A stretch of DNA of 64,000 nt from Myxococcota bacterium (GTDB lineage Bacteria > Myxococcota_A > UBA9160 > JAFDDA01), in contig OZ245817.1 of NCBI GenBank assembly GCA_965228475.1, forward strand, positions 3,616,001-3,680,000, in the 5' to 3' direction. The notes under the pieces are model-generated. The model made no database searches. It saw only the letters and a list, made by a program, of their open reading frames with translations, and had not been told where the DNA came from. Below, piece by piece: positions 9,562-28,595 of the stretch (the first letter of the stretch is position 1; each line of letters begins with the position of its first letter). A program made the translations under genes and the position numbers.

Positions 9562-9572
9562 CGCGCCGGGAC

Positions 9573-10051: not shown

Positions 10052-11566
10052 TCAGATCTTGCGTTCGCGGCCCTGCCAATAAGGGTCGCGCAGTTTGCGG
10101 GTGTAGAGCTTGCCGGAATCGTGCCGGGGCAGCCTCTCCTCGAAGTCGATCGAACGCGGCACCTTGTACCGGGCGAGCCGCTCCCGGCCGAAACCGAGGA
10201 TCTCCTCCGCCAGGCCCTCCCCTGGCGCGTGGCCCGGGCGCAGCTCGACGGCGGCCTTCACGGACTCGCCCCATTCGTCGTCGGGTACCCCGAAGACCGC
10301 GACGTCCGCCACGGCCGGGTGCTCCTGGAGGACCTGCTCCACCTCGGCCGGGTAGATGTTCACGCCGCCCGAGATGATCATGTGCGACTTCCTGTCGGCG
10401 AGGTAGACCCAGCCCTCCGCGTCGACGGAGCCGACGTCGCCGATGGTGAACAGATGCGGTTCCGGGTGGGCCTCGGCGGTCTTCTCGGGCGCGCCGTGGT
10501 ACTCGAACACCTGCGCGATCCGCTCGTGGCGGCAGTAGAGAGCGCCGGTCTCGCCGGGAGGGAGCCGGTGGCCGGCGTCGTCGCGGGCGAACACGTCGAA
10601 GCCGGGCAGCACGCGGCCGACCGTCCCCGGGTGGTCCAGCCACTCCTCGGAGGTCGCGAGCGAGTTCACCCCGCCCTCGGTCGCCCCCCAGTACTCGAGC
10701 AGCACCGGCCCGAACCACTCGATCATCCGCTGCTTCACGGGGACCGAGACCGGGGCCGCGCCGTGCATGACGAGCCGGAGCTTCGGCGCCCGGAACGCCG
10801 CGCGCTCCGCCTCGGGCAGACGCAGCAGCCGGACGAACATGGTCGGCACCATGTGCGTGTGGACGATCTCGCGCTCCGTGAGCGTGCGCAGCGCCGTCCG
10901 CTCGTCCCAGCGCCGGAGGATCACGATCGGTGCGCCGTTCGCCTGGTCGTAGAGGGCGAAGAGCAGCGGCGCGGCGTGATACATGGGCCCGGTGATGAGA
11001 TGCGGGCCGCTCCCGTCGAGGCCGTAGGCGCGACCCATCTCGCACTGGTACGCGAGCGCTTCGCCGAGGGTCGGTTTGCGCGCACGCTTCACGCCCTTGG
11101 GGCGTCCCGTCGTTCCGCTCGTGTAGATCATCGTGCCGCCGGGCGGGCCGGCGAGGTCGATGGGCTCGCTCGAGGCTGCGTCGAGCGCCGCCTCGTACGC
11201 GTCGCCAACCGTCACCACGCGCGGCGCCCCCGCGGCGCGGACGGTCTCCGCGTGGGCCTCGTCCGCGAAGACGACCTTCGCTCCCGAGTCTTCGACGATG
11301 TAGGCGATCTCGTCCTTCGCGAGGTGCCAGTTGATCGGCGTCAGCCAGACGCCGGCCAGGATCGCGCCGACGACGATCTCGACGTACTCGCTGCGATTCT
11401 CCATCAGGACCGCGGCGTGCTGCCCCGGCGCGAGGCCCGCCTCGTCGCGCAGGAAGTGTGCGACGCGCGTGCTGCGCTCGACGAGCTCGGCGAAGGTCCG
11501 CTGCGTCTCGCCATCGTCCACGGCCACGACGTCCGGCCGCGCTCTCGCCTGATCGAGGAGCGTCAC
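10052..11566 (-). CDS. Acyl-CoA synthetase (AMP-forming)
   Basis: IYTSGTTGRPKG, YWGATE, FTIGDVG, IISGGVNIYPAEVE, SGKL. Confidence 0.95.
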   Translation of the reverse strand: MTLLDQARARPDVVAVDDGETQRTFAELVERSTRVAHFLRDEAGLAPGQHAAVLMENRSEYVEIVVGAILAGVWLTPINWHLAKDEIAYIVEDSGAKVVFADEAHAETVRAAGAPRVVTVGDAYEAALDAASSEPIDLAGPPGGTMIYTSGTTGRPKGVKRARKPTLGEALAYQCEMGRAYGLDGSGPHLITGPMYHAAPLLFALYDQANGAPIVILRRWDERTALRTLTEREIVHTHMVPTMFVRLLRLPEAERAAFRAPKLRLVMHGAAPVSVPVKQRMIEWFGPVLLEYWGATEGGVNSLATSEEWLDHPGTVGRVLPGFDVFARDDAGHRLPPGETGALYCRHERIAQVFEYHGAPEKTAEAHPEPHLFTIGDVGSVDAEGWVYLADRKSHMIISGGVNIYPAEVEQVLQEHPAVADVAVFGVPDDEWGESVKAAVELRPGHAPGEGLAEEILGFGRERLARYKVPRSIDFEERLPRHDSGKLYTRKLRDPYWQGRERKI

Positions 11567-13014
11567 GGGAGCCGCGCCTCGCGCAGCGCGGAGCGCCGGA
11601 CCTTGCCCGCGTCGTCGCGCAGGGGCGTATCCACGAACTCGAAGGTCCGGGGCTGCTTGAAGCGGACGAGGCGCTCGGCGAGGTGTTCGCGCAGCGCGTC
11701 CTCTCCGAGCGAAGCGCCCGCGGTGTCGACGATGGCATGGATGCGTTGGCCCAGGTCTTCGTCCGGCAGCCCGACGACGGCGCTGCTGCGGACGTCCGGA
11801 TGCTCGTCGAGCACGGCTTCGACCTCGGCCGGGAAGACGTTGGCGCCGCCCGTCACGATCATGTCGGTCTTGCGGTCGACGAGGTAGAGGTAGCCGTCTT
11901 CGTCGAAGTACCCCATGTCGCCGAGGGTTTCCCAGCCGCCGGCATCCGCGCGCGCCTCGGCCCCGATGTAGAAGTAGGTCGAGCCCTGCCCGCCCTCGGG
12001 CATCATGAAGAGCTCACCGGTCTCGCGCGGCGCGCAGACGGAACCGTCCGGCCGCCGCACCTCGATCTTCCGCCCGGGCGGCGGCTTCCCGACCGAGCCG
12101 GGGTGCTCGAGCCACTCGGTCCCGGAGATCATGCACCCGGCGATGCGCTCGCTCCCACCGTAGGCCTCCCAGATCTTCTCGGGTCCGAGCCAGCCGATCC
12201 ACGCGCGCTTCAACCAGTCCGGACTCGGCGCACCGGTGCACATCACGCGCTCGAGGGAGGAGACGTCGTAGCGCGAGCGAACGTCCTCCGGCAGGCGCCA
12301 GATCCGCTGCATCATCGTCGGCACGAAGAGCGCCCAGTCCACCCGGAGGCGCTCGACCCAAGACAGGCACTCCTCGGCGTCGAAGCGCGAGACGAGCACC
12401 GCGCGTCCGCCGCACAGGATCTGCTGCCACGAGGTGATGAAAGGGCCGGCGTGGTAGAGGGGCCCGGGCGCGAGGGTCGTGCCGTCGGCGCGCATGGCGT
12501 TGGGAACCGCCTCCGGGTCGCACAGCGCGGGGGTCTTCTCGACGATCAGCTTCGGACGGCCCGTGCTTCCGCCCGAGGTCATCGCGCGCACGTAGGGAGC
12601 GACCCGGTCGGGCAGCGGCGCGTCGCCGTCTTCCGCACCGGGCTCGAAGCCCGGCGGCACGCAGGGGTGCGCGCCGTAGGACCCGGCTTCGGCCCCGACG
12701 AGCAGCGCCGGCTCGGCGAGGTCGACGATCGCGCGCCGCTCGGCCTCCGGCAGCCGCGCGGAGACCGGATTCGGCGTGGCGCCGAGCTTCCAGGCCGCGA
12801 GACACGCCTCCATGAACTCGATCCCGTTCGGGAGCGCCACGGTGACGAGGTCGCCTTCCCCGACGCCGAGCCGCGCGTAGGCTCGCGCCAGGCGGTTGGT
12901 TCGACGCTCGAGGGCCCCATGGCTGACGTGCCGGCCCTCGAAGACGATGGCGTCGGCGTCCGGGGCGCGTTCGGCGTGCCAGGCGACGGCGCGCCCGTGG
13001 GAGAGTTGGGGCAT
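11563..13014 (-). CDS. Acyl-CoA synthetase (bile acid-CoA ligase-like)
   Basis: TSGGSTGRPK, EAYGGSE, TLGDMG, GGANVFPAEVE, RDDAGKVRR; ATG 13014. Confidence 0.92.
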   Translation of the reverse strand: MPQLSHGRAVAWHAERAPDADAIVFEGRHVSHGALERRTNRLARAYARLGVGEGDLVTVALPNGIEFMEACLAAWKLGATPNPVSARLPEAERRAIVDLAEPALLVGAEAGSYGAHPCVPPGFEPGAEDGDAPLPDRVAPYVRAMTSGGSTGRPKLIVEKTPALCDPEAVPNAMRADGTTLAPGPLYHAGPFITSWQQILCGGRAVLVSRFDAEECLSWVERLRVDWALFVPTMMQRIWRLPEDVRSRYDVSSLERVMCTGAPSPDWLKRAWIGWLGPEKIWEAYGGSERIAGCMISGTEWLEHPGSVGKPPPGRKIEVRRPDGSVCAPRETGELFMMPEGGQGSTYFYIGAEARADAGGWETLGDMGYFDEDGYLYLVDRKTDMIVTGGANVFPAEVEAVLDEHPDVRSSAVVGLPDEDLGQRIHAIVDTAGASLGEDALREHLAERLVRFKQPRTFEFVDTPLRDDAGKVRRSALREARLP

Positions 13015-13034
13015 GGGTTCCGGGGCGTTGGAAT

Positions 13035-13057
13035 TTACGAGACGCAGCGTATAGTAA
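13035..13057. promoter_or_regulatory. Imperfect palindrome, candidate operator in divergent promoter region
   Basis: TTACGAGACGC-A-GCGTATAGTAA (9/11 arm match) containing a minus-strand TACTAT -10-like hexamer. Confidence 0.55.
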
Positions 13058-13156
13058 TTGACCGCGTCCCGGCAAGCGGCGATCCGAGCCCCCGGGGCCC
13101 TTCCGGCTGCCGAACCCGGAGCCGGCGCGCGAGGGCTTGAGCTAGCCTGCCGCCCC

Positions 13157-14164
13157 ATGGCAAGCGTCCTCGACAACTGGTCCGAAGTCCTCCGCACCCA
13201 GAACCTCTCCGACGAGAAGGAGATGGACTTCGTCTCCCGCTGGCTGCTGATCATCCGCGCGAGCGTCTTCCCGATGACGCTGACGTCCGCGGCGATCGGC
13301 GGACTCCTCGCCTGGTCGGACCCGGCCGTCACGAGCGCGAGCACGACGAACTTCCTGCTCGCGACCCTCGGGCTCGTGCTGGCTCACGCCGCCAACAACA
13401 TGATCAACGACTACTTCGACACCGAAGGCGGCGTCGACACGCAGGGCTACGTGCGCACCGAGTACGCGCCGCACCCGATCTTCTCCGGGCTGATCTCGAA
13501 GGGCGGCCTCGTCGCCGCCATCGTCGCCGTGAACCTCGTCGACCTCGCCATCCTCGTGTACTTCGTGCGCGAGCTCGGCATGGGCGTCGCGTACTTCGCG
13601 CTGGCGGGCTTCTTCGTCTCGGTCTTCTACGTGGCCCCGCCCTTCAAGCTGAAGCACCGCGGTCTCGGCGAGCCGGGCGTCGCGATCGTCTGGGGCCCGC
13701 TCATGGTCGGCGGCACCTACTACGTGACGGCGGGCTCCTTCGCGCCCTGGGTGCTCATCGCGAGCATCCCCTACGCCCTGCTCGTGACGACCGTCCTGAT
13801 CGGGAAGCACTGCGACAAGTACGACGCGGACTCCGCCAAGGGCATCCGCACCCTGCCGGTGATCCTCGGCAAGGAGCGGTCGCTCTTCCTGAACCAGTTC
13901 CTGATGTGGACCTTCATGGTCGTGGTGACCTGCCTCGTGGTGCTCGGCCACCTGCCGGTCTTCACCCTGGCGGTCTGGATCGCGACGCCGCGCATGCTCG
14001 CGGTCTCGAAGATCTTCGACGAACCCCGCCCGAGCGAGAAGCCCGCGAACTTCCCGATCTGGCCGCTCTGGTACGTCGCCTGGGCCTTCGTCTTCACGCG
14101 CTTCGCCGGCGGCCTGTTCATCGCGGGCCTGCTGCTCGGCGCGTTCTTCCCGGTGTACCTCTAG
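13157..14164 (+). CDS. menA: UbiA-family prenyltransferase, MenA-like
   Basis: HAANNMINDYFD, FYVAPPFKLKHRGLGE, DSAKGIRTLPVILG, multiple TM helices; second Asp-rich motif is atypical (KHCDKYDAD). Confidence 0.75.
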   Translation: MASVLDNWSEVLRTQNLSDEKEMDFVSRWLLIIRASVFPMTLTSAAIGGLLAWSDPAVTSASTTNFLLATLGLVLAHAANNMINDYFDTEGGVDTQGYVRTEYAPHPIFSGLISKGGLVAAIVAVNLVDLAILVYFVRELGMGVAYFALAGFFVSVFYVAPPFKLKHRGLGEPGVAIVWGPLMVGGTYYVTAGSFAPWVLIASIPYALLVTTVLIGKHCDKYDADSAKGIRTLPVILGKERSLFLNQFLMWTFMVVVTCLVVLGHLPVFTLAVWIATPRMLAVSKIFDEPRPSEKPANFPIWPLWYVAWAFVFTRFAGGLFIAGLLLGAFFPVYL

Positions 14165-15858: not shown

Positions 15859-17565
15859 CTACTCGTCGATGAAATCGTTCTCGCCCTCCCCTGCCAGGAC
15901 GTGCTTCAGGACCTTGCCGGCCGCGTTCCGCGGCAGCGCCTCCTCGCGAATCTCCCAGTGGCTCGGGACCTTGAAGTAGGCAAGTGCCTCCCCGACGTGT
16001 CGGCCCAGATCCTCGGTCTTCGGCTTCCCGCCGGCCCGGGGGACGACGAAGGCCTTCACCTCCTGACCGAGCTCCGGGTGGGGCACGCCCACGACCGCGG
16101 CCTCGGCGACCTCCGGATGCTCCTCCAGGCGATGCTCGATCTCGGCCGGATAGACGTTCTCGGCGCCGCGCAGGATCAGGTCCCGCCGTCGGGAGTTCAC
16201 GTAAAGATAACCGTGCTCGTCGAGACGTCCCCAGTCGCCGGTTCGAAGCCACCGACCCGCGCCGATGCTCTCCTGCGTCGCCTCCGGCTTGCCGTGGTAC
16301 TCGCGCATGACGAGGGGGCCCGAGAGATGGATCTCGCCCTCCTCTCCGGGCCCGAGGACACGGCCATCGTCCGGGTCGCGGATCTCGCAGCCGAGGGTCG
16401 GCAGCATGCGGCCGACCGAATCGGGCCGGGCCTCGAGCTCCGCACCGAAGTGGATCGTCGCGAGCCCGGTGTTCTCGGTGAGCCCGTAGCCGAGCCCCAT
16501 CTGACGACGCGCGTTCGGAAAGAAGGAGCGAAGCCGGTCGAGGACGTCCTGCGAGATCGGCGCACCGCCCGAGCCGCACTGCGTGACGCTCGAGAGGTCG
16601 TACTTCCCGGCGTCGGGATGGTCCATGCAGCGGTGCAGCATGTTCCCGAGCGGCCCCCAGCTCGTGACCCGTTCGCGCTCGATCGTCGCCATCGTGTGCT
16701 GCGGGTCGAAGCGCCCCTTCATCCAGACCGTCTTGACCCCGCCGGCGAGGAGCGTCACGGCGCCGGCGTAGAGGCCCGACACGTGGAAGAGCGGCGTCGA
16801 GACGAGCATCACGCGCGGCGGCGGAGGCGGAGCGTCGGGCGGGGGCGGGCCTTGGATCTTCATGAGGCGAAGCCCGTGCCAGACCTGGAGGCGATTGACG
16901 GCGACGATGTTGCGGTGGGTGTTGACGGCGCCCTTGGGGCGCCCGGTCGTTCCGCTCGTGTAGAGGATGCAGGCCGGATCGTCTTCGTCGACGGGGACGT
17001 CCGGGAGGCCCGCCGAGGGGTCGAAGGCCTCGAGCTTCGCGAAGTCGTGCTCGATCACGACGACGGGGATCTTCACGTCGTCCGCGCGCAGGCGGGCCAG
17101 CCGCTTCTCGTCGCCGACGAGGACCTTTGCCCCCGAGTCCTCGAGCCCGTAGAGGATCTCGTCGCGCACCCACCAGCCGTTCATCCCGACCGCGACCGCG
17201 CCCAGGCTGACCGTCGCCCACCAGGTGATGATCCACTCCGGGCAGTTCGCGGCAAGGATCGCGACGCGATCGCCGGGCCCGACGCCGTACTGCGTCGCCA
17301 GCGCGCGGGCCACGGAGCACACCCGGCGGTGGTGTTCCGCGAAGGTGATGCGGCGGTCTTCGTAGACGATGAACTCGGCGTCCCCGAAGGCGCGGGAGCC
17401 CTCCACCAGGGCGCGCAAGGAAGGCAAGCGATCCCGGAAGACCGGCGTCGGCACGCCGAAGACGTTCTCGTGGGTGACGTCGAAGGGTCCGCCCGGGGCG
17501 AGCAGCTCGCGCTCCGCCGCCGCGTGGGCCTCGATGTCGCTCGCCTGGAACGCCGCCGCACTCAC
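15859..17565 (-). CDS. Long-chain acyl-CoA ligase (class I adenylate-forming)
   Basis: ILYTSGTTGRPKG, GYGLTE, WLRTGD, RGAENVYPAEIE, NAAGKV; GTG 17565 overlaps the upstream TGA. Confidence 0.93.
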   Translation of the reverse strand: MSAAAFQASDIEAHAAAERELLAPGGPFDVTHENVFGVPTPVFRDRLPSLRALVEGSRAFGDAEFIVYEDRRITFAEHHRRVCSVARALATQYGVGPGDRVAILAANCPEWIITWWATVSLGAVAVGMNGWWVRDEILYGLEDSGAKVLVGDEKRLARLRADDVKIPVVVIEHDFAKLEAFDPSAGLPDVPVDEDDPACILYTSGTTGRPKGAVNTHRNIVAVNRLQVWHGLRLMKIQGPPPPDAPPPPPRVMLVSTPLFHVSGLYAGAVTLLAGGVKTVWMKGRFDPQHTMATIERERVTSWGPLGNMLHRCMDHPDAGKYDLSSVTQCGSGGAPISQDVLDRLRSFFPNARRQMGLGYGLTENTGLATIHFGAELEARPDSVGRMLPTLGCEIRDPDDGRVLGPGEEGEIHLSGPLVMREYHGKPEATQESIGAGRWLRTGDWGRLDEHGYLYVNSRRRDLILRGAENVYPAEIEHRLEEHPEVAEAAVVGVPHPELGQEVKAFVVPRAGGKPKTEDLGRHVGEALAYFKVPSHWEIREEALPRNAAGKVLKHVLAGEGENDFIDE

Positions 17566-20500
17566 GCCACGAGGTCCCCCATCTCGCGCAGGGTCTCGAC
17601 CACGTCTTCGGGCAGAACGGGCGGCTCCTTCCCGAGGTTCCAGGAGCCGAGCATCAGCTGCGCGGAGCGGTCGATGATCTCGACCATGTCGGCCGCCCGG
17701 CGGAGCGTCCGCCCGCCGACGAGGAGGCCGTGGTTCTTCATCAAGACGGCCCAGCCCTCGCCGATGCCCTCGCCGATCGCGTCGGCCAGCGCGCGGGTGC
17801 CGGGCATGATGAACGGGATCCTCGGAATGTTCCCGAAGAAGGCGGCCTCCGTGGAGACCGGAAGGAACGGCAGGTCGGCGTTCGCGAGGATCGTCGCGTG
17901 GGGGGCGTGGGCGTGGACCACGGCCGTGGCCTCGGCCTTCGCGCGGTAGACCGCGCAGTGCATCATCCACTCGCTCGAGGGCGAAAGGCTCCCCTCGAGG
18001 CGCTTCCCGTCGAGGTCGATGCGGACCAGCAGCTCGGGGCGGAGGTCGCCCTTGAAGAGCTGGCTCGGGGTGATCCAGATCTCGTCCTCGCGCTCGGGGA
18101 CCCGGACCGAAACGTTGCCGCCGGTCGCGGTGATCAGTTCCTGGGCGTAGAGCTCCTCGACCCGGGCCAGGAGTTCGTGACGCACGTCGCTCGCACCGAC
18201 CGAAGTCACGAGCGCCGGTGCTCCGCCGCTGGCCTCCGGATCCGGCAGGCTCGCGAGGTCACCGGGGTCACCGCGTTCCGCCCGGGCCGCCTGGTAGATG
18301 CGCGACAGGTCGGACTGGATCTGCTGCAGCGTCATCGCCTTGGCCGTGTCGCCGCTGAAGGAGAGCCCTCCGTTCATGGCGGCCTGCATCGGGTTGACGC
18401 GGCCCGTGAACATCCCGTCGAGGACGTCGGCGCGCATGCGCAGCTCGACCTCCGGCGCTTCGGGGGGCGCGGTCATCGCCCCCGAGACCGTCCCCGCCCG
18501 CAGCGAGAAATGGAACTCGATCGGGAGATCGTTCAGCAGGAAGTGGAGCGTCACGTCCTTGTCGCGCGAGAACTCGGCCAGCCCGCCATCCGCAGCGATC
18601 CCCGAAACGAAGGCTTCCACCACCGAGGACATCGCGGAGGCGATCTCCGGAGACGCCGCCTCGCTCGCTGCCGCCGCCGCTGCCGGTTCGCCCGCCTCGG
18701 CCGGCTTCTCCTTCGCCCCCTTCCGACGACCTTTCTCGAGGTCCGTCACGGCGGGCCCCGGGCGCGCGGCGAGCTCCTCGAGCGCTTCGGGAGACAGCTC
18801 GGGGCGCGGACGGTCGAGCCGGAAGGCCTCCGCCGCACGGGGGTTCAGCGCGTAGCGCGGCGCCTCGCCCCGCAGCAGACGGGCGAGGTCCTCGGCGATG
18901 ATCCGGCCCTGGTGCGCTTCCACCTCCTCGGTGTTCCCGCCGACGTGAGGGGTGGCGACGACGTTCTCGAAGCCGAGCAGCGGGTGGTCGTGCCCCGGCG
19001 GCTCGACGGGGAAGACGTCGGTGGCGGCGCCCCCGAGCTGGCCGTGCGCCAGCGCTTCGACGAGCGCCGCCTCGTCCACGAGCGCCGCCCGCGCGGAGTT
19101 CACGAGGCAGGCGCCGGGCTTCATGCGCGCGATCTCCGCGCGCCCGATCAAGCCCTCGGTCTCCGGCGTCACCGGCGCGTGGAGACTCACGAAGTCCGAC
19201 TCCGCGAGCAGGAGGTCGAGACCCACGGGCTCGGCCCCGGCCCGGACGATCGCTTCCTCGGGCAGGAAGGGGTCGAAGACGACCACCCGCGCGCCGAAGC
19301 CCGCGAGGCGTTTCGCGACCCCGCGGCCGACGGCACCGAGACCGACCAGCCCCACCGTCTTCTGCCAGAGCTCGCGCCCCCGCAGCGACTGGAACGCCTG
19401 CCCCATCTTCCCCATGTCGCCGGCCTGCACGGAGGGGTCGCGCAGGAATCGATCCGCCGCCACGAGCTTGCGCGCGAGCAGGAGGAGGTAGGCGACCGCC
19501 AGATCCGCGACGGCGTCGGCGTTGCGCCCCGGTGCATTCAAGACGGGGATCCCGAGCGCCGTCGCCGCTTCGAGATCCACGTTCACCGCATCCCCGCGAC
19601 ACGACGCGACGACGCGGAGGTCCGCGGCCCGGGCCATGGCCTGCGCATCGACCACGTCGATCTCCGTCACGAAGACCGCGACCCCCGCCAGGGCGTCGAC
19701 GAGGTCCTGCCCCGTGAGGAGCCGCATGCGCTCGCGGAAGGGCGCGTACTCGACGTCTCCGAGTGCCTCGAGGGCTTCGCGCGACGCCGCGTCGAGGCCC
19801 GCCGTCACCAGGATCCGGGGCCGGGGCGAATCGCCCGCCGCCACGGGCGCCTCGTTGCGGCGGGTCATGACCGCGGGCAGCACGGCCTGGAAGGCGAGGT
19901 CGGCGCCCGCGCCGTGCGCCTCGCCCAGGGCGCGCCAGTTCTCCCGGACGGGCGCGTAGAAGGCTGCGCGCTCGGCATCCGGTGCGAGCGTTCGCTCGGG
20001 CTGCGCGTGATGCTCGGCCGCCGCCTCGAGGGAGTCGAAGCATCCGGCGGCGACGCCGGCGCAAAGGGCGGCACCGAGACCCGTCGCCTCGGGCTGCGGC
20101 CCGATCGCCACCTCCCGCCCGAGCACGTCCGCCAGGAGCTGCCCGAAGAACCCGCTGCGCGAGAGGCCGCCCGTCAGCGTGACGGCGCTCCCGGGACGCC
20201 CGCTCGCGCGCTCGAGCTGTTCGACGGTGCCGTGCAGCGCGAAGGCCAGACCCTCCGCGATGGACCGTGCGAGACCTCCGCGCCCCGCCGTTTCGTCGGC
20301 GGCGAGATGGCTCAGGGTGAGATCGCCGAGCGGGAGGGCGAGCGAACGCGCGTCCCCGATCTGTGCGCCGAAGGTCGAGCGGAAGCCATGGGCGCCGGGC
20401 GGAGCCGCGGCGGCCTCGGCGAGCAGACGCGCGGCGGGCTGCGGTGCGTCGGGCGCGAGCAGGCGTCCGATCCAATCGAGGGCCTCGCCGGCCGGCCCGG

Positions 20501-21401
20501 CGTTGCTCTCGGCGACCCAGCGGCCCGACACCAGATGGTGTCCACGCCACAGGCGTCCTTCGGCGTCGCGGGGCACCTCGTCGAAGACCTGCATCACGGG
20601 AAGCGTGCTCCCGGCCACGGCCCCGACGTCCGCGGGGGCGAGGACGCCGGCACCGAGCAGGGCGCACTGGGTGTCGCCGCCGCCGAGCGCCACGGGCGTT
20701 CCGGGACGCAGGCCGAACGCTTCCGCCGCCTCGGCGGTGAGACCGCCCAGCCGGTCGCCGGCGCGGCCCAGCTTCGGGAAGGCCGCCGCCGGAAGGCCGA
20801 GCCGGTCGATCCACTCCCAGGCCCACTCGCCCTTGCGAAGATCGAAGACCATCGTGCAGCCGGCCTGGCTCGGCTCGGCGGCGATCTCGCCACAGAGCCG
20901 GAAGGCGAGCCATTCGTCGAGCGAGAGGACGTGGGCGACCCGGGCGAAGGCTTCGGGCTCGTTGCTCGCGAGATGCATGATGCGAGCCGCCGGCATGAAT
21001 GGGGCCGGCCAGTGGCCCGTGGCCGCGGCGATCTCCGCACCGTCGGAGGCGGCCAACCCGATCGCCTCCCCGGCGGCGCGCGCGTCCCGATTGGACGCCG
21101 CCTGCACAGCAGTGCCATCGGCCGCGAGCAGGACGCTCGAGAAGCGCATGGCACTCGCGGCGACGCCGGCCACCTGTTCGGGCCGCGCATCGGCGCGCCC
21201 GAGGGCGTCCCGGGTGGCCTCCCCGAGCTTTCGCCACAGCGCGGGAAGGTCGACGTCGCTCCCGGTCCCGCCCGTCCCGGGCGCCGCGGCGTGGACGAGC
21301 CCACGCGACGCCCCGAAGACCGCTCCGCTCTCAGCGTCGACGAGCCGAGCGCGGGCGCCGCCGCCGCCGATGTCGAAGCCGAGCAGGTAGGTGGCGCTCA
21401 C
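17562..21401 (-). CDS. Four-domain fusion: FGGY kinase + D-2-hydroxyacid dehydrogenase + SCP2 + class II aldolase (1279 aa)
   Basis: FGGY: GFDIG, GGGDTQCA, TGGLSRS..QLLADVLG, EATGLGAA. Dehydrogenase: GLVGLGAVG, NSARAALVD, DVFPVEP, TPHVGG. SCP2: MFTGRVNPMQAAMNGGLSFSGD. Aldolase: TGGNVSVR, SSEWMMH, VHAH, KNHG. No internal stop. Confidence 0.9.
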   Translation of the reverse strand: MSATYLLGFDIGGGGARARLVDAESGAVFGASRGLVHAAAPGTGGTGSDVDLPALWRKLGEATRDALGRADARPEQVAGVAASAMRFSSVLLAADGTAVQAASNRDARAAGEAIGLAASDGAEIAAATGHWPAPFMPAARIMHLASNEPEAFARVAHVLSLDEWLAFRLCGEIAAEPSQAGCTMVFDLRKGEWAWEWIDRLGLPAAAFPKLGRAGDRLGGLTAEAAEAFGLRPGTPVALGGGDTQCALLGAGVLAPADVGAVAGSTLPVMQVFDEVPRDAEGRLWRGHHLVSGRWVAESNAGPAGEALDWIGRLLAPDAPQPAARLLAEAAAAPPGAHGFRSTFGAQIGDARSLALPLGDLTLSHLAADETAGRGGLARSIAEGLAFALHGTVEQLERASGRPGSAVTLTGGLSRSGFFGQLLADVLGREVAIGPQPEATGLGAALCAGVAAGCFDSLEAAAEHHAQPERTLAPDAERAAFYAPVRENWRALGEAHGAGADLAFQAVLPAVMTRRNEAPVAAGDSPRPRILVTAGLDAASREALEALGDVEYAPFRERMRLLTGQDLVDALAGVAVFVTEIDVVDAQAMARAADLRVVASCRGDAVNVDLEAATALGIPVLNAPGRNADAVADLAVAYLLLLARKLVAADRFLRDPSVQAGDMGKMGQAFQSLRGRELWQKTVGLVGLGAVGRGVAKRLAGFGARVVVFDPFLPEEAIVRAGAEPVGLDLLLAESDFVSLHAPVTPETEGLIGRAEIARMKPGACLVNSARAALVDEAALVEALAHGQLGGAATDVFPVEPPGHDHPLLGFENVVATPHVGGNTEEVEAHQGRIIAEDLARLLRGEAPRYALNPRAAEAFRLDRPRPELSPEALEELAARPGPAVTDLEKGRRKGAKEKPAEAGEPAAAAAASEAASPEIASAMSSVVEAFVSGIAADGGLAEFSRDKDVTLHFLLNDLPIEFHFSLRAGTVSGAMTAPPEAPEVELRMRADVLDGMFTGRVNPMQAAMNGGLSFSGDTAKAMTLQQIQSDLSRIYQAARAERGDPGDLASLPDPEASGGAPALVTSVGASDVRHELLARVEELYAQELITATGGNVSVRVPEREDEIWITPSQLFKGDLRPELLVRIDLDGKRLEGSLSPSSEWMMHCAVYRAKAEATAVVHAHAPHATILANADLPFLPVSTEAAFFGNIPRIPFIMPGTRALADAIGEGIGEGWAVLMKNHGLLVGGRTLRRAADMVEIIDRSAQLMLGSWNLGKEPPVLPEDVVETLREMGDLVA

Positions 21402-22687
21402 GCGCGGGCGGCCGTCGGCTCGAAGGTCACCGGAAGCGCCTTGGGGGCCCGGAAGATCATGCCCGTGATGTGGACGTCCTCGGCGGCCGGATCGAGCGCG
21501 AGCCCGGGCAGCCGATCGAGCACCGCGTTCACGACGGTCTCGGTCTCGGCCTTCGCCAGATGCATGCCGAGGCAGCGGTGGGGGCCGAAGGCGAAGGCCA
21601 TGTTGGTCTTCGTCTCCCGGAAGAGGTCGAACTCCCCGGGCCGGTCGTAGCGGTCCGCATCGCGGTTGGCGGCGCCGAGGTTGACGCTGACCGTGGAGCC
21701 GGCGGGAATCTCGACGCCCGCGACCTCCGTGTCGCGCGTCGCCGTGCGCATGATTCCGAGCAGCGGGCACTCCCAGCGGAGCCCCTCCTGGACGGCCTGG
21801 GGCAGGAGGGAGCGATCGGCCCGAAGGGCCTCGAGCTGCGCCGGGTTCGAGAGCAGGCCGAACAAGAGGTTGCTCGAGGAGCGGTAGGTCGTCTCCGCCC
21901 CCGCCGGCGCCAGCAGGCGCAGGAAGGCGAAGATCTCGTCGTCGGTCAGGCGCGTGCCTTCGAGCTCGGCGTGGGCCAGCACGCTGATCAGGTCGTCGCG
22001 CGGGTCGCGGCGCCGGTCGGCCAGCACGCGGGCGAAGATCTCCTCGAGGCCGGCGGAGGCCTTGGCGCCCCGCTCGAAATCGATCGAGACGCTGATCAGC
22101 TCCACCGCGAGCCGGTGGAAGTCCGGGAAGTCGCGCGCGGGCAGGCCCATCATCCCGGCGATGACCGCCACCGGGAACGGGAACGTCAACTCGCGCACGA
22201 GATCCGCCGAGCCGCGCGCCGAGAAGCGATCGATCAGCCCGTGCACGACGGGGGCGATCAGGTCCCGCTCCCACGCTTCGATCGCCTTCTTGGTGAAGGC
22301 CTTCTGGATGAGTCCGCGGTAGCGGGAGTGCTCGGGCTCGTCCATCTGCAGGATCGTCCGGCCCATGACCTGGCCCATGGTCTCGGCGTAGCCGGCCGAG
22401 GAGAAGGTCTCCCCGTCGCGCAGCACGTGGGAGACGGCCTCGTGACTCAGCGCGACGTAGATCTCCGAGGACATGCCGGGCGGGAGCTTCACGTCCACGC
22501 CTTCGCCGCCCATGAGTGAGCCGGTCTCGATCTTCACGACGGGCCCCTGGGCCCGGAGCGCGGCGAAGATCGGGTACGGATCGCGCACGTTCCCCATGCC
22601 GGCGGAACGGTTGAACTCGTCGAAGGGGTCGTAGTCCCCGCTGCCGCCGTGAGCGGCGAGCAGTCCGGAAACGAGGTCTTCGCTCAT
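21398..22687 (-). CDS. Cytochrome P450
   Basis: MDEPEH, LAPAGAETT, EGLRWE, heme motif FAFGPHRCLG; ATG 22687 overlaps the tetR stop. Confidence 0.95.
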   Translation of the reverse strand: MSEDLVSGLLAAHGGSGDYDPFDEFNRSAGMGNVRDPYPIFAALRAQGPVVKIETGSLMGGEGVDVKLPPGMSSEIYVALSHEAVSHVLRDGETFSSAGYAETMGQVMGRTILQMDEPEHSRYRGLIQKAFTKKAIEAWERDLIAPVVHGLIDRFSARGSADLVRELTFPFPVAVIAGMMGLPARDFPDFHRLAVELISVSIDFERGAKASAGLEEIFARVLADRRRDPRDDLISVLAHAELEGTRLTDDEIFAFLRLLAPAGAETTYRSSSNLLFGLLSNPAQLEALRADRSLLPQAVQEGLRWECPLLGIMRTATRDTEVAGVEIPAGSTVSVNLGAANRDADRYDRPGEFDLFRETKTNMAFAFGPHRCLGMHLAKAETETVVNAVLDRLPGLALDPAAEDVHITGMIFRAPKALPVTFEPTAARA

Positions 22688-23352
22688 GGAGTCCTCCTCG
22701 GCGCCGCGGGGGCGTCGCCGTTGGTCCCAAGCAGCCGGTGGGTGATGCGGAGGACCTCGGCGCGGTGGGCGTCGAGGTGTTCCTTCGCGAGGGGATCGAA
22801 GTCGAGGGCGGGGAAGAGCGTCGGGATCGCGGAAACGAAGAAGACGGTCGCGCCCGCGATCGTCGCCGCGAGATGGGCCGGGTCGATCGGCGTGCGGATG
22901 CCGCCGTCCTCGCTCGCGCGGGACTCCTCGATCGCCCGCTTCGCGAGTTCGACGAAGGGTCCGGTGTGGCGCAGGATCACCGGGCCGTCGGTACCGGTCG
23001 CGCCGGCGATCTCGCGCAGCAGCAGCCGCGCGAAGGTGGGGCGGCGCCCGACGAAGTCGACCCAGGCGGAGATCGCCAGGTCGACGCGTTCCGCCATCGG
23101 CCCCTTGCTGGAGAGCGGCGGGGCGACCTCCTGGTAGAGGCCGTCGAGCACGTGCGCGATCACGGCGTCGTAGAGCGCCGGCTTGTCGCGGAAGTAGTAG
23201 ACGATGGACGCGCGGCGGATGCCGACGCGGGCCGCGACGTCCTCGAGCCGCGTCGCGGCGAACCCGTTCTCTGCGAACAGGACCTCGGCGGCTTCGACGA
23301 TCGCCGCCCGGGTCCGCTCCGCCTTGGCGGTCGTCTTCCGGCCTTCGCTCAT
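22684..23352 (-). CDS. TetR/AcrR family regulator
   Basis: AIVEAAEVLFAENGFAATRLEDVAARVGIRRASIVYYFRDK. Confidence 0.95.
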   Translation of the reverse strand: MSEGRKTTAKAERTRAAIVEAAEVLFAENGFAATRLEDVAARVGIRRASIVYYFRDKPALYDAVIAHVLDGLYQEVAPPLSSKGPMAERVDLAISAWVDFVGRRPTFARLLLREIAGATGTDGPVILRHTGPFVELAKRAIEESRASEDGGIRTPIDPAHLAATIAGATVFFVSAIPTLFPALDFDPLAKEHLDAHRAEVLRITHRLLGTNGDAPAAPRRTP

Positions 23353-23359: not shown

Positions 23360-23381
23360 TTCTACCTGCATGCAGGCAGAA
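23360..23381. promoter_or_regulatory. Near-perfect palindrome, candidate autoregulatory TetR operator
   Basis: TTCTACCTGCATGCAGGCAGAA, 7 bp from the tetR ATG; overlaps the RBS and abuts a minus-strand TGTAAT -10-like hexamer. Confidence 0.7.
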
Positions 23382-23419: not shown

Positions 23420-24628
23420 CTAGCGGGTCAGGAGGATCGCGCTGGCCAGGGGCCCGCCGCCGGCGGCCGCGACGGCGACCTGGGGCGTCGGCGCGACCTG
23501 CCGCTCGCCGCCCTCGCCCCAGAGCTGGACGCAGGCCTCGTGCAGGAAGCCGTAGCCGTGGAGGCGGCCCGCCGACAGCTGGCCGCCCTGGGTGTTCAGG
23601 GGGATCTCGCCGTCGCGCGCGATGCGCGTGCCGCCTTCGAGGAAGGGGCCGCCCTCCCCTTTTCCGCAGAAGCCGAGGGCTTCGAGCCAGGCCAGGGTGA
23701 TGAAGCTGAAGCCGTCGTAGAGCTCGGCGACGTCGACGTCCGCCGGCCGGAGGTCCGTCCGCTCCCAGAGCATGGCGGAGGCGTCGCGCAGGGCCATGGT
23801 CGTCAGGTCGTCCCACTGGTCCCAGGACGGACGCCCGTGGATGGCGGTGCCGACGGCCTCGACGCCGATCGCCGGCCGGCGGAGGTCCCCTGCCCTGTCC
23901 TTCCGCGAGACGATCACCGCCGTCGCGCCGTCGCACGGGACGTCGCAGTCGAACAGGCCGAGCGGGGTCGAGATCATGCGCGCGCCGAGGTAGTCGTCGA
24001 GACTCATCGGCTCGCGGTAGATCGCCGCCGGGTTGAGGGCGGCGTTCTTGCGCGCGTTGATCGCGATCTGCCCGAGCTGCTCGCGCGTGGTGCCGTACTC
24101 GTGGAAGTGTCGCTGGGCGCACAGGGCGATCCAGTTCGCGGCCGAGTAGGCGCGGAAGGGCAGCGACCACTCCATCGCTCCCGAGGGCCGGAAGCCGCGG
24201 CCGCCACCGCCGCCCGAAGGCAGGCCGATCCCCGAGCGGCCGCCCTTGCCCTGGGCCGTCGCCTCCCACACCGAGCGGAAGCACAGCACGTGGTTCGCGA
24301 GCCCGCCGGCCACCGCCATGCACGCGTTCACGACCGACCCGAGCTGGCCCGGCATCTCGAGGCCGCCCGTGTACCAGCGCAGGGAGAGCCGCAGCGCATC
24401 GTGGACCTCGGCCACGCCCGCCCCGGTGAAGCCCGGCGCACCACCCATGGCCCCGGGGTACGTCGCGATCCCGTCGACGTCCTCGCGGGTGAGGCCGGCG
24501 TCCTCGATGGCCGCGACGCAGGCGTCGAGCGTCAGGTCGAGGGGGTCGCGGTCGATCCGGCGGCCGATCTGCGACTGGCCGATCCCCGTGATGCAGGCCT
24601 TGCGCTCGGCGATTTCGCTCGCCGTCAC
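23420..24628 (-). CDS. Thiolase-fold protein, Ltp2-like aldolase type
   Basis: FDCDVPCDGA, AELYDGF, NTQGGQLSAGRLHG; lacks the canonical nucleophilic Cys motif; coupled to DUF35. Confidence 0.88.
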   Translation of the reverse strand: MTASEIAERKACITGIGQSQIGRRIDRDPLDLTLDACVAAIEDAGLTREDVDGIATYPGAMGGAPGFTGAGVAEVHDALRLSLRWYTGGLEMPGQLGSVVNACMAVAGGLANHVLCFRSVWEATAQGKGGRSGIGLPSGGGGGRGFRPSGAMEWSLPFRAYSAANWIALCAQRHFHEYGTTREQLGQIAINARKNAALNPAAIYREPMSLDDYLGARMISTPLGLFDCDVPCDGATAVIVSRKDRAGDLRRPAIGVEAVGTAIHGRPSWDQWDDLTTMALRDASAMLWERTDLRPADVDVAELYDGFSFITLAWLEALGFCGKGEGGPFLEGGTRIARDGEIPLNTQGGQLSAGRLHGYGFLHEACVQLWGEGGERQVAPTPQVAVAAAGGGPLASAILLTR

Positions 24629-25068
24629 GCGGGCAGGGATCCCGAGCCGGGTTCGGGCTCGAACAGCGGGAACCAGACGTCGTCGTCGTGGGCTTCGAAG
24701 ACGACGCGAACGCGCATCCCGATCGTGACGTCCTCGGGCGCGCAGTGGACGACGTTCGTCATGAGCCGGAGCCCGGGCTGCTCGTCGAGCTCGACGATCG
24801 CCACCACGTAGGGATGGTCCGCCGAGGGGACCCAGGGCTGGTGGTTCAGGGTGAAGGTGTGGACGGTGCCGCGGCCGCTCACGGCTTCCGGCGCCACGTC
24901 CTTCGACCAGCAGGCGCCGCAGCGCGGTGCCGGCGGGTGGATGAACGCTTCGCAGGCCCGGCAGCGCAGGATGCGCAGGACCCCTTCGCGCCCGGAACGC
25001 CAGAAGTGCTCGTTGGCGGCGGTCACGCGCGGAAGCAGACGGAACGGGTTCTCGGGGGCCTCGGCCAT
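24625..25068 (-). CDS. Zn-ribbon/OB-fold DUF35 protein
   Basis: RCRAC..PRCGAC, VSGRGTVHTFT, PYVVAIVELDE, IGMRVRVVF. Confidence 0.92.
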   Translation of the reverse strand: MAEAPENPFRLLPRVTAANEHFWRSGREGVLRILRCRACEAFIHPPAPRCGACWSKDVAPEAVSGRGTVHTFTLNHQPWVPSADHPYVVAIVELDEQPGLRLMTNVVHCAPEDVTIGMRVRVVFEAHDDDVWFPLFEPEPGSGSLPA

Positions 25069-25093: not shown

Positions 25094-26314
25094 CTAGAGC
25101 AGGTCGATCTGCCCGTCGAGGTAGGGGAGATCCATGATCGACTCGTTGCTCGCGCGGCGGCCGGCGGCGAGCTCGGTCACGACCTGGGCGATCGCGGGAT
25201 CCTCCCGGGAGAGCCGTTCGAAGTCGCTGCGCGGGAGCACGAGGGCCCAGCACTTGCCCTCGGCCATGCAGGCCGCGACCGCGGGCTCTCCGGTCACCAT
25301 GGACATCTCGCCGAACACGTCGCCGGGCTCGAGGCGAGCGAGGCGGCGGTCTCCGACCGCGTCCGAGTGGATCACGTCCACGCGGCCGGCGAGCAGCGCG
25401 AAGAGCCCTGGCGAGGGGTGCCCCTGCCGGACGAGCGCGGCGCCGTCCTTCATCTCGACGAAGCGGAAGCGGCGCGCCACCGCGTGGCGCTCGGCGCCGG
25501 GCAGCGAGGTGAAGAACGGGCTCGTGCGGACGAGGCGGTCGATCAGGCGATCGCGCACGTAGCCGAGCACGACCTCGAGCACCTTCGGCTCGGCGCGCAT
25601 CAGATCCGAGAGCAGACGGCGGTCCACCGCGAGGAGCTTCGTATCGACGAGGGCCTCGATGGTGGCGCTGCGCGGCCGTTCGGTGAGGAGCGAGATCTCT
25701 CCGAAGAAGTCTCCTTCTTCGAGCACCGCGAGCTTCTTGCGCGGCTCGCCTTCGGCCACGGGGACGACGGCGCCCTCGGCGATCACGTAGAGCGTGTCGC
25801 CCGGGTCGCCCTGGTGGAAGAGCTCGTGGTCCGCGGCGAGCTCCACGAGGCGCGCCCCGTCGATCAGGCGGCGCAGGCTCGCGCTGTCGAGACTCTCGAA
25901 GAGCGGGGTGCGCGGGAGCGTGTCGCGCGCCCAGCGGCGCGCGTCGTCGCCGCTCGTCTCCTTCCAGTCGAGCTCGATCTCGACCATCGGCTGGGCGGTC
26001 ATCTCGTTGTCGAGGGAGAGCGCCGGGGCCTCTTCCATGACGTCCTCGAGCACGAGTTCGTCGAGGGGGGCACCCTTCTCGAGCTCCACCGGCGGCCGCT
26101 CGGGAACCGGCGTCTCGTCGGCGTGAAGCTTCTCGCAGAGCGCCTCGATGCGTTCCTTCGTCCCCGGGTGATCGGGGTCGACCAGGAGGATCCGCTTGCA
26201 GGCGGCGATCGCCTTCAGCGGGGAGTTCTCCCGCTCGTGCCGTTTCACCGCCCGTTCGAGCGTCTTGATGCGGGCGGCGTCGTCGCGAACCGGAAGCGGA
26301 GTCGGGTCACTCAT
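25094..26314 (-). CDS. Tandem cyclic-nucleotide-binding domain protein
   Basis: FHQGDPGDTLYVI..GDFFGEISLL..PRSATI and a second domain GDVFGEMSM; N-terminal TPR-like helix pair; no HTH. Confidence 0.88.
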   Translation of the reverse strand: MSDPTPLPVRDDAARIKTLERAVKRHERENSPLKAIAACKRILLVDPDHPGTKERIEALCEKLHADETPVPERPPVELEKGAPLDELVLEDVMEEAPALSLDNEMTAQPMVEIELDWKETSGDDARRWARDTLPRTPLFESLDSASLRRLIDGARLVELAADHELFHQGDPGDTLYVIAEGAVVPVAEGEPRKKLAVLEEGDFFGEISLLTERPRSATIEALVDTKLLAVDRRLLSDLMRAEPKVLEVVLGYVRDRLIDRLVRTSPFFTSLPGAERHAVARRFRFVEMKDGAALVRQGHPSPGLFALLAGRVDVIHSDAVGDRRLARLEPGDVFGEMSMVTGEPAVAACMAEGKCWALVLPRSDFERLSREDPAIAQVVTELAAGRRASNESIMDLPYLDGQIDLL

Positions 26315-26357
26315 CGCCCTTCGTTATCGGCCACCTCGGGCTCGCCTTGACGCGCGC

Positions 26358-28595
26358 CTACTTGTCCGAGGCTTCGTGGACGCCTTCCCAGTCCGCGGCA
26401 GCCGGCGCGGACCCGTTCGCGGTGAGACGCTCCGAGTGAAGACCCCAGAGCGTCTCCAGGGAACCATCGAGCTCCCGGCAGCGGGCGAGGGCTTCGCGGG
26501 CTTCGGCCCAGCGGCCGGCGCGGTAGGCCGCCAGGAAGGCTTCGTTGGCATCGAGGAGCGCGAGATAGGCGGTCCCACCGGCGACGTCGGCGCCGCCGAG
26601 GAGCGCGTGGACGGGCTCGGCCTGGGCGCGGCCCTTCACGCGCAGCCGATCGAGTTCGAGGGTCGCGAAGCCCTCGAGCGCCTGGCTCGTGCGGTCCCCG
26701 ACGATGATCGGAAGGCCGTAGGTCTTCGACTGGCCTTCGAGCCGGGAGGCCAGGTTCACCTCGTCGCTGATCACCGAGTAGTCGAAGCGCTGGTCCGAGC
26801 CGAAGTTTCCGACGCAGCACGGCCCCGTGTTGATTCCGATGCCCATGCGCAGACGCGGAACCTTCGAGGACCCGGCCGCGGCCTCGGCGGCGAGGGTCTC
26901 GTTCAGGCGGCCGAGCTCGGCCTCCATCTCGAGCGCCGCTTCGCAGGCATGCCGTGCGTGCTCCGGATCTTCGAGCGGCGCGTTCCAGAACGCCATGATG
27001 CAGTCGCCCATGTACTTGTCGATCGTTCCGCCGTGGTCGAGGATCACGCGCGTCATGGGCGTGAGGAAGCGGTTCACGAGGCTCGTGAGCTCCTCCGGAT
27101 CGAGCTGCTCCGAGATGGTGGTGAAGCCGCGGATGTCGCAGAAGAGCACGGTCATCTCGCGCGTCTCGCCGCCGAGCCGGAGCAGGCCGGGATCCCGCGC
27201 GAGTTCCTCGACCAGGCGCGGCGCGACGTAGCGTCCGAAGGCGGACCGGACCTCGCGCCGCTCGCCTTCGGTGCGAAGGAAGGCCGAGAGCGAACCCGTC
27301 AGGTAGACGAACACGATCGCCGTCCAGGCGTAGACCGGGGCGACGAGCCAGAGGTGCTCGCGGAAGGCCCAGTAGGAGAAGCCGCCGGCAAGGACGAGGC
27401 CCGCGACCCCGATCCCGGCGCACCAGAGCGCGCCGACCCGGGGCAGCAGGACGATCAGCAGCAGGCCGATCGCGAGGATGCCCAGGAACTCGGCGCCCTT
27501 CGCCCAGTCCGGCCGCTCGAGGTAGTGCCCGGTCAGCACCTGCTCGACGAGCTCCGCGTGGAGCTGGACGCCCGGCGTGGCCGGGTCGCGCGGCGTGGCC
27601 CGGATGTCCTTCAACCCCTCCGCGCTCGTCCCGACGAACACGATGTGCCCGGCCAGGAGCTCCGGGTTCACGCTGCCGTCGAGCACCTGCCAGGCCGGCA
27701 CGTAGCGCTCGGGCACGGCCTCGGTGAAGTGGATCCAGACGCGGCCGTTGCGGTCCGTCGGGATCTGCACTTCGCGGCCGATGCGGATCTCGACGATGCC
27801 GGAGCCCGCGCCGAAGGCATCCGTCCCGCCCGCGTTCGAGGACTTCACCAGGTAGGAGCCTCCGGCGGTCGCCACGCGCAGCGCCTCGGCAGCGAGCGAG
27901 GGGTGCAGCACCTCGCCGTGGCGGAAGAGCAAGGGCACGCGGCGGAGCACGCCGTCGCGCTCGGGCCAGGGCAAGGCGAAGGAGCCCGCGCCACTCGCCG
28001 CCTCGTGCAGCGCCGGCAGGTTCGGGACCCCGCCGAGGAGATCCGGAAGGAAGCGCCGCGGGTCGTCGCCGAGGTGGCTCACGCCCGCTTTCGGCTCGGG
28101 CACGCGCCCTCCGGCGTGATCCATGAGCACGAAGCCCGCGACCACGCGCATCTCCCGGAAGGCCTGGGCGAAGACGGCGTCGTGATCGGGCAGGCCTTCG
28201 GCCCGGGCGGTGAACTCCGCGTCGGCGCTCTCCGCCCAGAGGGGAAGGACCTGCGCCGGGGAGGTGCGGTCGGGTTCCGCGAAGACGACGTCGAACGCCA
28301 CGACGGCGACGTCGAGCCGCGCGAGCGCTCGCACCAGCTCCGCCAGGTGGGTCCGCGGCCAGGGCCATTGCCCCATGCGCTGGAGGCTCGCGTCGTCGAT
28401 GTCGATGATCCGCACGGGCAGCGGCTCGTAGACGCGCGGGTGCCAGCGCTGATACGTGTCGAAGACCGCGAGCTCGGCGCGCTCGAGGATCGGTGGCTCG
28501 AAGAAGCGGAGCGAGAGCGCGCCGGCGAGCGCCGCGAGAGAAGCCCACGTGGCGATCGAAGGCAGCGCCCACGCGAATCGGCTTCGAGGTTTCAT
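26358..28595 (-). CDS. CHASE2-domain class III adenylate cyclase
   Basis: IIDIDDASL..GQWPWPR..FDVVFAEPD (CHASE2), 3 TM, VLFCDIRGFT, IDKYMGD, FDYSVISDEVNLASRLE; ATG 28595. Confidence 0.93.
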   Translation of the reverse strand: MKPRSRFAWALPSIATWASLAALAGALSLRFFEPPILERAELAVFDTYQRWHPRVYEPLPVRIIDIDDASLQRMGQWPWPRTHLAELVRALARLDVAVVAFDVVFAEPDRTSPAQVLPLWAESADAEFTARAEGLPDHDAVFAQAFREMRVVAGFVLMDHAGGRVPEPKAGVSHLGDDPRRFLPDLLGGVPNLPALHEAASGAGSFALPWPERDGVLRRVPLLFRHGEVLHPSLAAEALRVATAGGSYLVKSSNAGGTDAFGAGSGIVEIRIGREVQIPTDRNGRVWIHFTEAVPERYVPAWQVLDGSVNPELLAGHIVFVGTSAEGLKDIRATPRDPATPGVQLHAELVEQVLTGHYLERPDWAKGAEFLGILAIGLLLIVLLPRVGALWCAGIGVAGLVLAGGFSYWAFREHLWLVAPVYAWTAIVFVYLTGSLSAFLRTEGERREVRSAFGRYVAPRLVEELARDPGLLRLGGETREMTVLFCDIRGFTTISEQLDPEELTSLVNRFLTPMTRVILDHGGTIDKYMGDCIMAFWNAPLEDPEHARHACEAALEMEAELGRLNETLAAEAAAGSSKVPRLRMGIGINTGPCCVGNFGSDQRFDYSVISDEVNLASRLEGQSKTYGLPIIVGDRTSQALEGFATLELDRLRVKGRAQAEPVHALLGGADVAGGTAYLALLDANEAFLAAYRAGRWAEAREALARCRELDGSLETLWGLHSERLTANGSAPAAADWEGVHEASDK

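Follow-up and report, generated by a model that had tools for sequence, protein, structure and literature searches.

What does a single protein do that joins a sugar kinase, a dehydrogenase, a sterol-carrier domain (SCP2) and an aldolase? The question is raised by a gene in a 64,000-nucleotide stretch (the window, whose numbering is used throughout) of a Myxococcota bacterium genome (contig OZ245817.1, positions 3,616,001 to 3,680,000). A first-pass annotation, made from the letters alone, had proposed an enzyme that phosphorylates, oxidizes and retro-aldol cleaves, or builds, a polyol head on a hydrophobic molecule. We found that the fusion is real, conserved and uncharacterised, and that it probably applies a known logic of sugar cleavage to a lipid. 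Judging from its modules, there is a somewhat better than even chance (about 55%) that the four-module enzyme removes a three-carbon unit, dihydroxyacetone phosphate (DHAP), from the terminal tetrol of a bulky lipid through phosphorylation, oxidation and retro-aldol cleavage. That this lipid is the hopanoid bacteriohopanetetrol (BHT) is a more tentative proposal, made by analogy.

The gene, window:21401-17562(-), translates into 1279 aa with no internal stop, as first described, and the four domain calls were likewise sound: all are above the Pfam curated cut-offs, at positions that agree with the approximate ones given earlier. Although the mechanically called open reading frame (ORF) extends further, to 22730, the start is assigned to the GTG at 21401, because this codon overlaps the stop of the upstream P450 gene (GTGA) and relatives of 1230–1320 aa align from the start of the query. 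The fusion stop overlaps the start of the downstream CoA ligase gene, also through GTGA. The fusion is read as translationally coupled to the P450 on one side and to a CasG-like CoA ligase on the other, and a conserved operator lies upstream. The integrity of the module junctions, named beforehand as the point on which the fusion could fail, is supported by single contigs from 2 of 4 sequencing runs (two studies), which span the stretch with 0 differing letters and 0 gaps, one of them possibly being the source of this DNA. These contigs and the same architecture in relatives rule out an assembly chimera or a frameshift. The Ala/Glu/Lys linker between the dehydrogenase and SCP2 (aa 861–920) is present but poorly conserved, only its first part being kept across relatives.

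A protein search scored 8000 candidates and gave 730 matches, of which the best 120 (one row being this protein) were used for counting. The dehydrogenase, SCP2 and aldolase Pfam domains were found in all 120 and FGGY_N in 119 (one partial). A check of the InterPro/CDART type had been proposed for the four-module architecture, which is shared by these best 120 of 730. By their automatic labels, the matches come from Myxococcota, Binatia, Mycobacterium kansasii, M. persicum, M. simiae, Chloroflexota and Eisenbacteria, and the nearest named ones point to a Myxococcota host. In the class of the host, the SCP2-aldolase half was matched in 67 of 225 genomes; removal of 3 weak matches (more distant stand-alone aldolases) and 3 aldolase-only genomes left 61 of 225 as carriers of the fusion, including two with the aldolase in a separate frame, and three further copies cut by contig ends were found later. 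The fusion also occurs in other phyla, and in a sample of the phylum 24 of 401 genomes matched, 4 of them outside the class. It is a widespread, automatically annotated family and no one-off protein. In the literature, as covered by titles and the beginnings of abstracts, with few subscription journals and without supplements, we found nothing on an SCP2/FGGY/dehydrogenase/aldolase fusion architecture and no gene for hopanoid side-chain breakdown. Residue conservation was assessed over about 110 relatives (106 aligned rows for the kinase and dehydrogenase, 113 for the aldolase), and a tree of the relatives was built with FastTree.

The kinase module contains FGGY_N (aa 5–250) and FGGY_C (aa 291–452) domains and is nearest to LsrK (PDB 5ya0, about 30% identity) by sequence and by fold. 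LsrK is also its best NCBIfam match (PRK10939), with 229.9 bits against a cut-off of 528. Asp10, Arg86, Asp106 and Asp243 are conserved, the two catalytic aspartates Asp10 and Asp243 in 104 (2 gaps) and 106 of 106 rows, so a dead kinase is unlikely. The phosphate-1 loop, flagged as atypical (DIGGGG), proved to be so family-wide: DxGG, with Gly13 in 104 of 106 rows, stands in place of the canonical DxGT, and LsrK has Thr there (DAGT). The dehydrogenase module contains 2-Hacid_dh (aa 531–853) and 2-Hacid_dh_C (aa 637–821) domains, and 106 of 106 rows agree in Arg771, Glu800 and His819 as well as in Asp710, the NAD-type residue, in keeping with the NAD-type D-2-hydroxyacid dehydrogenase with an Arg/Glu/His triad that had been proposed. 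It scores under every named subfamily cut-off, including those of the PGDH and glyoxylate reductase equivalogs (237.2 and 209.1 bits versus NCBIfam cut-offs of 454 and 455).

The aldolase module (Aldolase_II, aa 1076–1251) was correctly recognized as a metal class II enzyme, since Glu1144 and His1163, His1165 and His1224 are invariant in 113 of 113 rows. It has the features of the FucA/DrdA type: three metal-binding His residues, a catalytic Glu in the motif SSE and the phosphate-pocket Asn, Thr and Ser. Its top PDB match by both sequence and fold is 6BTD/6BTG (TM score 0.91 over the target, rmsd 1.5 Å). This protein is DrdA, which splits 5-deoxyribulose 1-phosphate into DHAP and acetaldehyde and accepts various aldehydes (PMC6079011), and DrdA/FucA-type aldolases in general are flexible toward the aldehyde (PMC10733421). 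The catalytic Glu76 of DrdA aligns with Glu1144, and Thr1184 (111 of 113 rows) and Pro1200 (113 of 113) stand where DrdA has two aromatic residues. The FucA equivalents of these two aromatic residues presumably wall the aldehyde pocket. None of the NCBIfam subfamily cut-offs for FucA, DrdA-like, AraD, OtnC and Ru1P is reached (whole-protein scores and cut-offs, in falling order of score, 113.7/264, 107.2/251, 98.7/250, 97.1/264 and 96.4/300, the pair 98.7/250 being that of OtnC).

The identity of the middle domain as SCP2 is upheld by Pfam (aa 951–1029, 43.3 bits versus a cut-off of 21.3) and by structure prediction, the model matching human SCP2 with Z 11.7 and rmsd 2.0 Å over 107 aligned residues. 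AlphaFold models of SCP2 plus aldolase (pTM 0.86) and of kinase plus dehydrogenase (pTM 0.88) have mean pLDDT values of 93–94, which suggests that the modules within each modelled pair are packed in a fixed way rather than loosely. SCP2 was found in 249 of 251 distinct chains having both dehydrogenase and aldolase (one copy in 242, two in 7), the 2 chains without it belonging to one cluster. The first search behind this set favoured SCP2-bearing matches, whereas the aldolase-led searches did not. Tandem double SCP2 domains were seen in the deep-branching versions P0018, P0284, P0302 and P0303.

A 22-bp palindromic operator (consensus TTCTACCTGCGCGCAGGTAGAA) lies at the head of the operon and, judging by its position, is likely bound by the adjacent TetR. 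In the host genome only one strong site was found (32.1 bits), the next scoring 17.4 and the reversed-genome control 18.9; a wider operator regulon in the host was therefore rejected. A strict pattern places the operator before TetR in 29 of 31 loci, and the profile score does so in the remaining two. With one mismatch allowed, it occurs in 50 of the 225 genomes of the class (reversed pattern, 0), namely in 30 of 61 fusion carriers versus 20 of 164 others, kin not being independent, and it lies within 3.5 kb in 32 of the 65 loci having at least 2.5 kb of upstream sequence. In 13 of 85 loci it stands 27–134 bp before the fusion with no TetR between, and the genomes of these loci carry further copies before TetR, the same P450 clade and a CoA ligase. 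Because the operator keeps preceding each of these genes when they are apart, the fusion, P450 and CoA ligase likely share one repressor. Further copies sometimes precede a luciferase-like monooxygenase or MarR gene; in L216 and L218 (genomes G078 and G080), the copy before the MarR gene is divergent from genes for an SDR, an SCP-x-type thiolase and a GPH-family symporter. A sigma-70 promoter scan gave 0 hits.

Within 3 kb of the fusion, the 101 non-identical loci contain a CasG-like ligase (29 loci), the same P450 clade (29), TetR (28), a KshA-type Rieske oxygenase (23) and a second ligase (12), with any of the P450, ligases and Rieske oxygenase in 45, over several well-supported clades. The recurrent gene order is TetR, P450, fusion, Rieske, ligase. 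This order was listed with a simple ORF filter that missed a few true genes; the 101-locus counts are based on unfiltered ORFs, and the sample covers loci other than those of Mycobacterium and Chloroflexota. The adjacent ligase is best described as CasG-like and no CasG member, with 653.7 bits versus the cut-off of 750 for NF052580 (steroid-24-oyl-CoA synthetase). In three relatives the score to CasG is 647–703, the next family scoring about 360, and the adjacent ligase is the best CasG-like gene of its genome (653 versus 507 bits for the next). Thiolase-like and ChsH2-type OB-fold genes recur as neighbours in 12 and 9 of 124 loci, respectively. Absent among the recurrent neighbours are a conserved phosphatase and the MtnK-/MTAP-type kinase and MtnA-type isomerase that mark a Drd pathway.

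A FucA/DrdA-type aldolase requires a 1-phospho-2-keto-3,4-diol. We infer every chemical step: the kinase and dehydrogenase together would make this substrate from a terminal 1,2,3,4-tetrol. In the proposed mechanism, written for BHT with its usual side-chain numbering, i) the kinase would phosphorylate the terminal CH2OH (C35), ii) the dehydrogenase would oxidize the next carbinol (C34) with NAD+, the phosphate taking the usual place of the 2-hydroxy-acid carboxylate, iii) the metal aldolase would split the resulting 5-substituted 5-deoxyribulose 1-phosphate into DHAP and a lipid aldehyde (C32), and iv) SCP2 would keep hold of the hydrophobic moiety, both within these steps and from one to the next. 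The C32 acid may then be formed by an aldehyde dehydrogenase whose gene lies elsewhere, and the CasG-like ligase could activate this acid for beta-oxidation; the target of the P450 and Rieske oxygenase may be the hydrophobic core and need not be the product of the fusion. A lipid is favoured as substrate because SCP2 is retained and the regulon includes the P450 and CoA ligase. The presence of an ATP-driven FGGY kinase, together with the lack of a conserved phosphatase, speaks for cleavage rather than building. Of the earlier proposal, the hydrophobic, polyol-headed substrate is thus supported by residue conservation, SCP2 retention, neighbourhood and the shared operator, while the option of building is disfavoured.

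The choice of BHT, the best candidate for the substrate, makes chemical sense but is a possibility that we hold with less than even confidence, as is the corollary that the family strips its ribitol-derived tail, taking DHAP and leaving a C32 (bishomohopanoid) skeleton. Since BHT derives from adenosylhopane via ribosylhopane (PMC12583986), its tail is a 5-substituted 5-deoxyribitol, and 1-phospho-2-keto BHT is a substituted DrdA substrate. By structural reasoning, the side chain of the C32 acid, ring-CH(CH3)-CH2-CH2-COOH on a five-membered ring, resembles a bile acid's C5 side chain, and CasG prefers C5 side chains, the ring system counting less (PMC8399759). Hopanoic acids of C30–C34 in the environment have been ascribed to oxidative cleavage of bacteriohopanoid diols (PMC4339782). 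The host would be a consumer rather than a maker of hopanoids, because its genome (96% complete) has no shc or hpnH match above cut-off.

Several observations weigh against this reading. At least 8 genomes (G022, G027, G059, G060, G061, G184, G186 and G195) keep the operator and P450 with no adjoining fusion and two (G039 and G063) keep only a kinase remnant, so the P450 is not dependent on the fusion. Squalene-hopene cyclase is not associated with the fusion (22 of 61 carriers versus 44 of 164 others, P 0.19, kin not independent), and CasG-like ligases occur widely in the class (151 of 225 genomes, none above cut-off). Lipid genes are lacking in 56 of 101 loci, which are on short contigs, in housekeeping surroundings or stand-alone, and each of the 4 loci found in the phylum's other classes stands by itself and lacks the operator. 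The neighbourhoods contain no conserved aldehyde dehydrogenase (3 of 124 loci have an AdhE-type gene, and 1 of 20 remote-operator regions has one Aldedh), no conserved importer and no conserved enzyme uncapping amino-, glycosyl- or cyclitol-bacteriohopanepolyols (BHPs). We found no characterised member of the dehydrogenase family with a polyol phosphate as substrate. Variants exist without SCP2 (P0419, G069), without the kinase (L053, L067, L094-L096 and L101) or with only the aldolase retained (G056, G110 and G135), and SCP2 domains bind many lipids.

A lipid might also be processed in another order or carry another head, such as a ketose or an aminopolyol (a deaminated sphingoid base or 35-amino-BHP), from which kinase and aldolase would release DHAP, the dehydrogenase acting on a later 2-hydroxy or 2-oxo acid. 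We consider this unlikely: the characterised relatives of the dehydrogenase do use 2-hydroxy acids, and some chains combine kinase and aldolase with hardly any dehydrogenase or none (P0271, P0510), but neighbour clusters of at least 3 loci include no aminotransferase or amine oxidase save a DAO-family gene in 4 of 124 loci, no second SCP2 fusion lies near the gene in the examined loci, and where the kinase is split off the dehydrogenase still accompanies the aldolase. More doubtful is a soluble polyol of the ribitol, 5-deoxyribitol or erythritol type, with SCP2 as a structural spacer or lipid-sensing regulator. Against the near-universal SCP2, doubled in 7 chains, and the co-regulation with P450 and CoA ligases can be set the SCP2-less versions, the many copies among housekeeping genes and an unfused trio of the same enzymes that goes with a polyol permease in Streptomyces atratus. 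Genes for sugar uptake are absent from the loci of the fusion family, however: 144 loci contain no homologue of the S. atratus permease or its regulator, nor of the binding and membrane subunits of the sugar ABC transporter of a comparable Halomarina cluster, a generic ABC ATPase homologue being found in one locus.

In the opposite direction, a lipid with a polyol head would be made or remodelled by joining DHAP to a lipid aldehyde and reducing the product. The equilibrium of aldol reactions lies toward condensation (PMC6079011) and over a third of the carriers have squalene-hopene cyclase; yet this direction would need a phosphatase, not a kinase, the neighbour genes are degradative and the host lacks the shc and hpnH matches, which together make it very improbable. 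The autoinducer-2 (AI-2) pathway, suggested by JGI and many other database labels and by LsrK as the top hit of the kinase in NCBIfam and the PDB, is scarcely credible, given the low identity and sub-threshold score, the absence of the lsr transporter and LsrF/G among recurrent neighbours and the three additional modules that it leaves without explanation.

Cleavage of a lipid polyol tail would have wider consequences. Among bacterial lipids the hopanoids are abundant, and they are key molecular fossils. If BHT is the substrate, the family would give the C32 hopanoic acids and alcohols found in soils and sediments a dedicated biological source, would open hopanoid catabolism under a TetR regulon of its own, and would supply a marker gene for hopanoid turnover; one soluble protein, with DHAP and the C32 aldehyde as readout, makes the question of the hopanoid side chain directly testable. 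If it acts on another lipid, it would still be an undescribed assembly line for lipid head removal, the 2-hydroxyacid dehydrogenase fold would probably have gained a new activity, and many database entries labelled AI-2 kinase would need correction. The features of the locus are collected in the table.

Table. Positions of the fusion gene, its modules and adjoining elements in the window
Feature	Positions	Strand	Basis or remark
Whole fusion gene	17562..21401	-	translation, Pfam, relatives, contig cover
FGGY kinase module (aa 1-495), closest to LsrK among solved structures	19917..21401	-	Pfam, structure/sequence match
D-2-hydroxyacid dehydrogenase-family module (aa 527-860)	18822..19823	-	Arg771/Glu800/His819, GxGxxG, Asp710, loop CRGDAVN
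Ala/Glu/Lys linker (aa 861-920)	18642..18821	-	poorly conserved; first part only conserved
SCP2 sterol-carrier fold (aa 921-1045), predicted to pack on aldolase	18267..18641	-	Pfam, predicted structure
Class II aldolase module (aa 1070-1279), matching DrdA/FucA best	17565..18194	-	Asn1096, Thr1111, Ser1142-Ser1143-Glu1144, three His
CasG-like acyl-CoA ligase	15859..17565	-	start overlaps fusion stop
Cytochrome P450	21398..22687	-	start overlaps TetR stop, stop overlaps fusion start
TetR-family repressor, operon head	22684..23352	-	Pfam
22-bp palindromic operator, likely bound by adjacent TetR	23360..23381	.	only strong site in genome
Thiolase-like (lipid-transfer type) gene and ChsH2-type OB-fold gene	23420..25068	-	upstream of operator

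Among the variant loci, the kinase at L066 is split off and divergent from a dehydrogenase-SCP2-aldolase gene, and such kinase-less or kinase-split genes (L053, L066, L067, L094-L096 and L101) adjoin DUF1329-type envelope genes. The family aldolase stands alone with its score intact at L162 (G056, 70% complete) and L154 (G135, 94% complete), no kinase or dehydrogenase orthologues being found in these genomes. At L161:4719-6653 (G110), an in-frame P450-aldolase fusion occupies the same operon slot, kinase and dehydrogenase orthologues again not being found in this 71% complete genome. As a Rosetta stone this fusion was set aside: one further cluster (95% identical) was found among 120 listed of 220 matches, and it is probably a single deletion event. 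By eye, P0294 is a family-type aldolase with a SorC-like helix-turn-helix fused on as its start. Downstream in the window (8101-14164) are a second P450, two more acyl-CoA ligases and a UbiA/MenA-like prenyltransferase, which apparently also follows the kinase remnant in G039. On the other side (25094-31479) are a tandem cNMP-binding protein (scanned), an apparent CHASE2 adenylate cyclase, a FecR-like protein and an outer-membrane protein, and the region 32001-36000 has a G+C content of 57–66% versus about 71% elsewhere, a possible foreign insert.

Parts of the proposed route are known from other systems. LsrK, the nearest solved kinase, has a similar NxDAR motif but differs in its DxGT loop and its gene context, in addition to the low identity and sub-cut-off score noted above. 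The same three enzyme families occur unfused on plasmids of S. atratus (L156:6345-12273), with a SorC-type regulator and an RbtT/DalT/CsbX polyol permease (478.5 bits versus a cut-off of 375), and of Halomarina, with an apparent sugar ABC transporter. Their dehydrogenases are 41–44% identical to that of the fusion (S. atratus, 41%, with the same CR..VN loop). Unlike the fusion family, these clusters have transporters for polyols or sugars and no SCP2; they are themselves uncharacterised, that of S. atratus being apparently a polyol pathway. Bacillus subtilis YoaC/YoaD is presumably a further unfused example. For YoaDC, the one paper found offers no more than a guess at the function (PMC2885750). 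In the tetronate route (Ltn3D-3OtnK-3OtnC, PMC12994016), a dehydrogenase, a kinase and a cleaving enzyme also act on a short polyhydroxy chain, but the dehydrogenase is an SDR, the substrate a sugar acid and the cleavage a decarboxylation. The erythritol route (EryA-EryB, PMC3522698) likewise uses an FGGY-class (COG1070) kinase on a polyol and then a dehydrogenase on the polyol phosphate, a precedent for the order of kinase before dehydrogenase; EryB, however, is from another family (COG0578), and the route is unfused, with no class II aldolase and no SCP2. Degradation of the bile-acid C5 side chain (CasG/StdA1, PMC8399759) shares the CasG-like ligase, and heteromeric acyl-CoA dehydrogenases and thiolase/OB-fold pairs recur near the fusion, but bile acids already carry the acid, so that kinase, dehydrogenase and DHAP aldolase are not needed. 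The closest chemical likeness is to 5-deoxyribose salvage, or the DHAP shunt (DrdK-DrdI-DrdA, PMC6079011), which also proceeds through 1-phosphorylation and a 5-deoxy-ketose 1-phosphate to cleavage by a class II aldolase into DHAP and an aldehyde. There, separate enzymes with an MtnK-type kinase and an isomerase, instead of an FGGY kinase and a dehydrogenase, act on a soluble substrate without a lipid carrier, whereas the fusion would bring the same cleavage to a lipid held by its own SCP2 domain.

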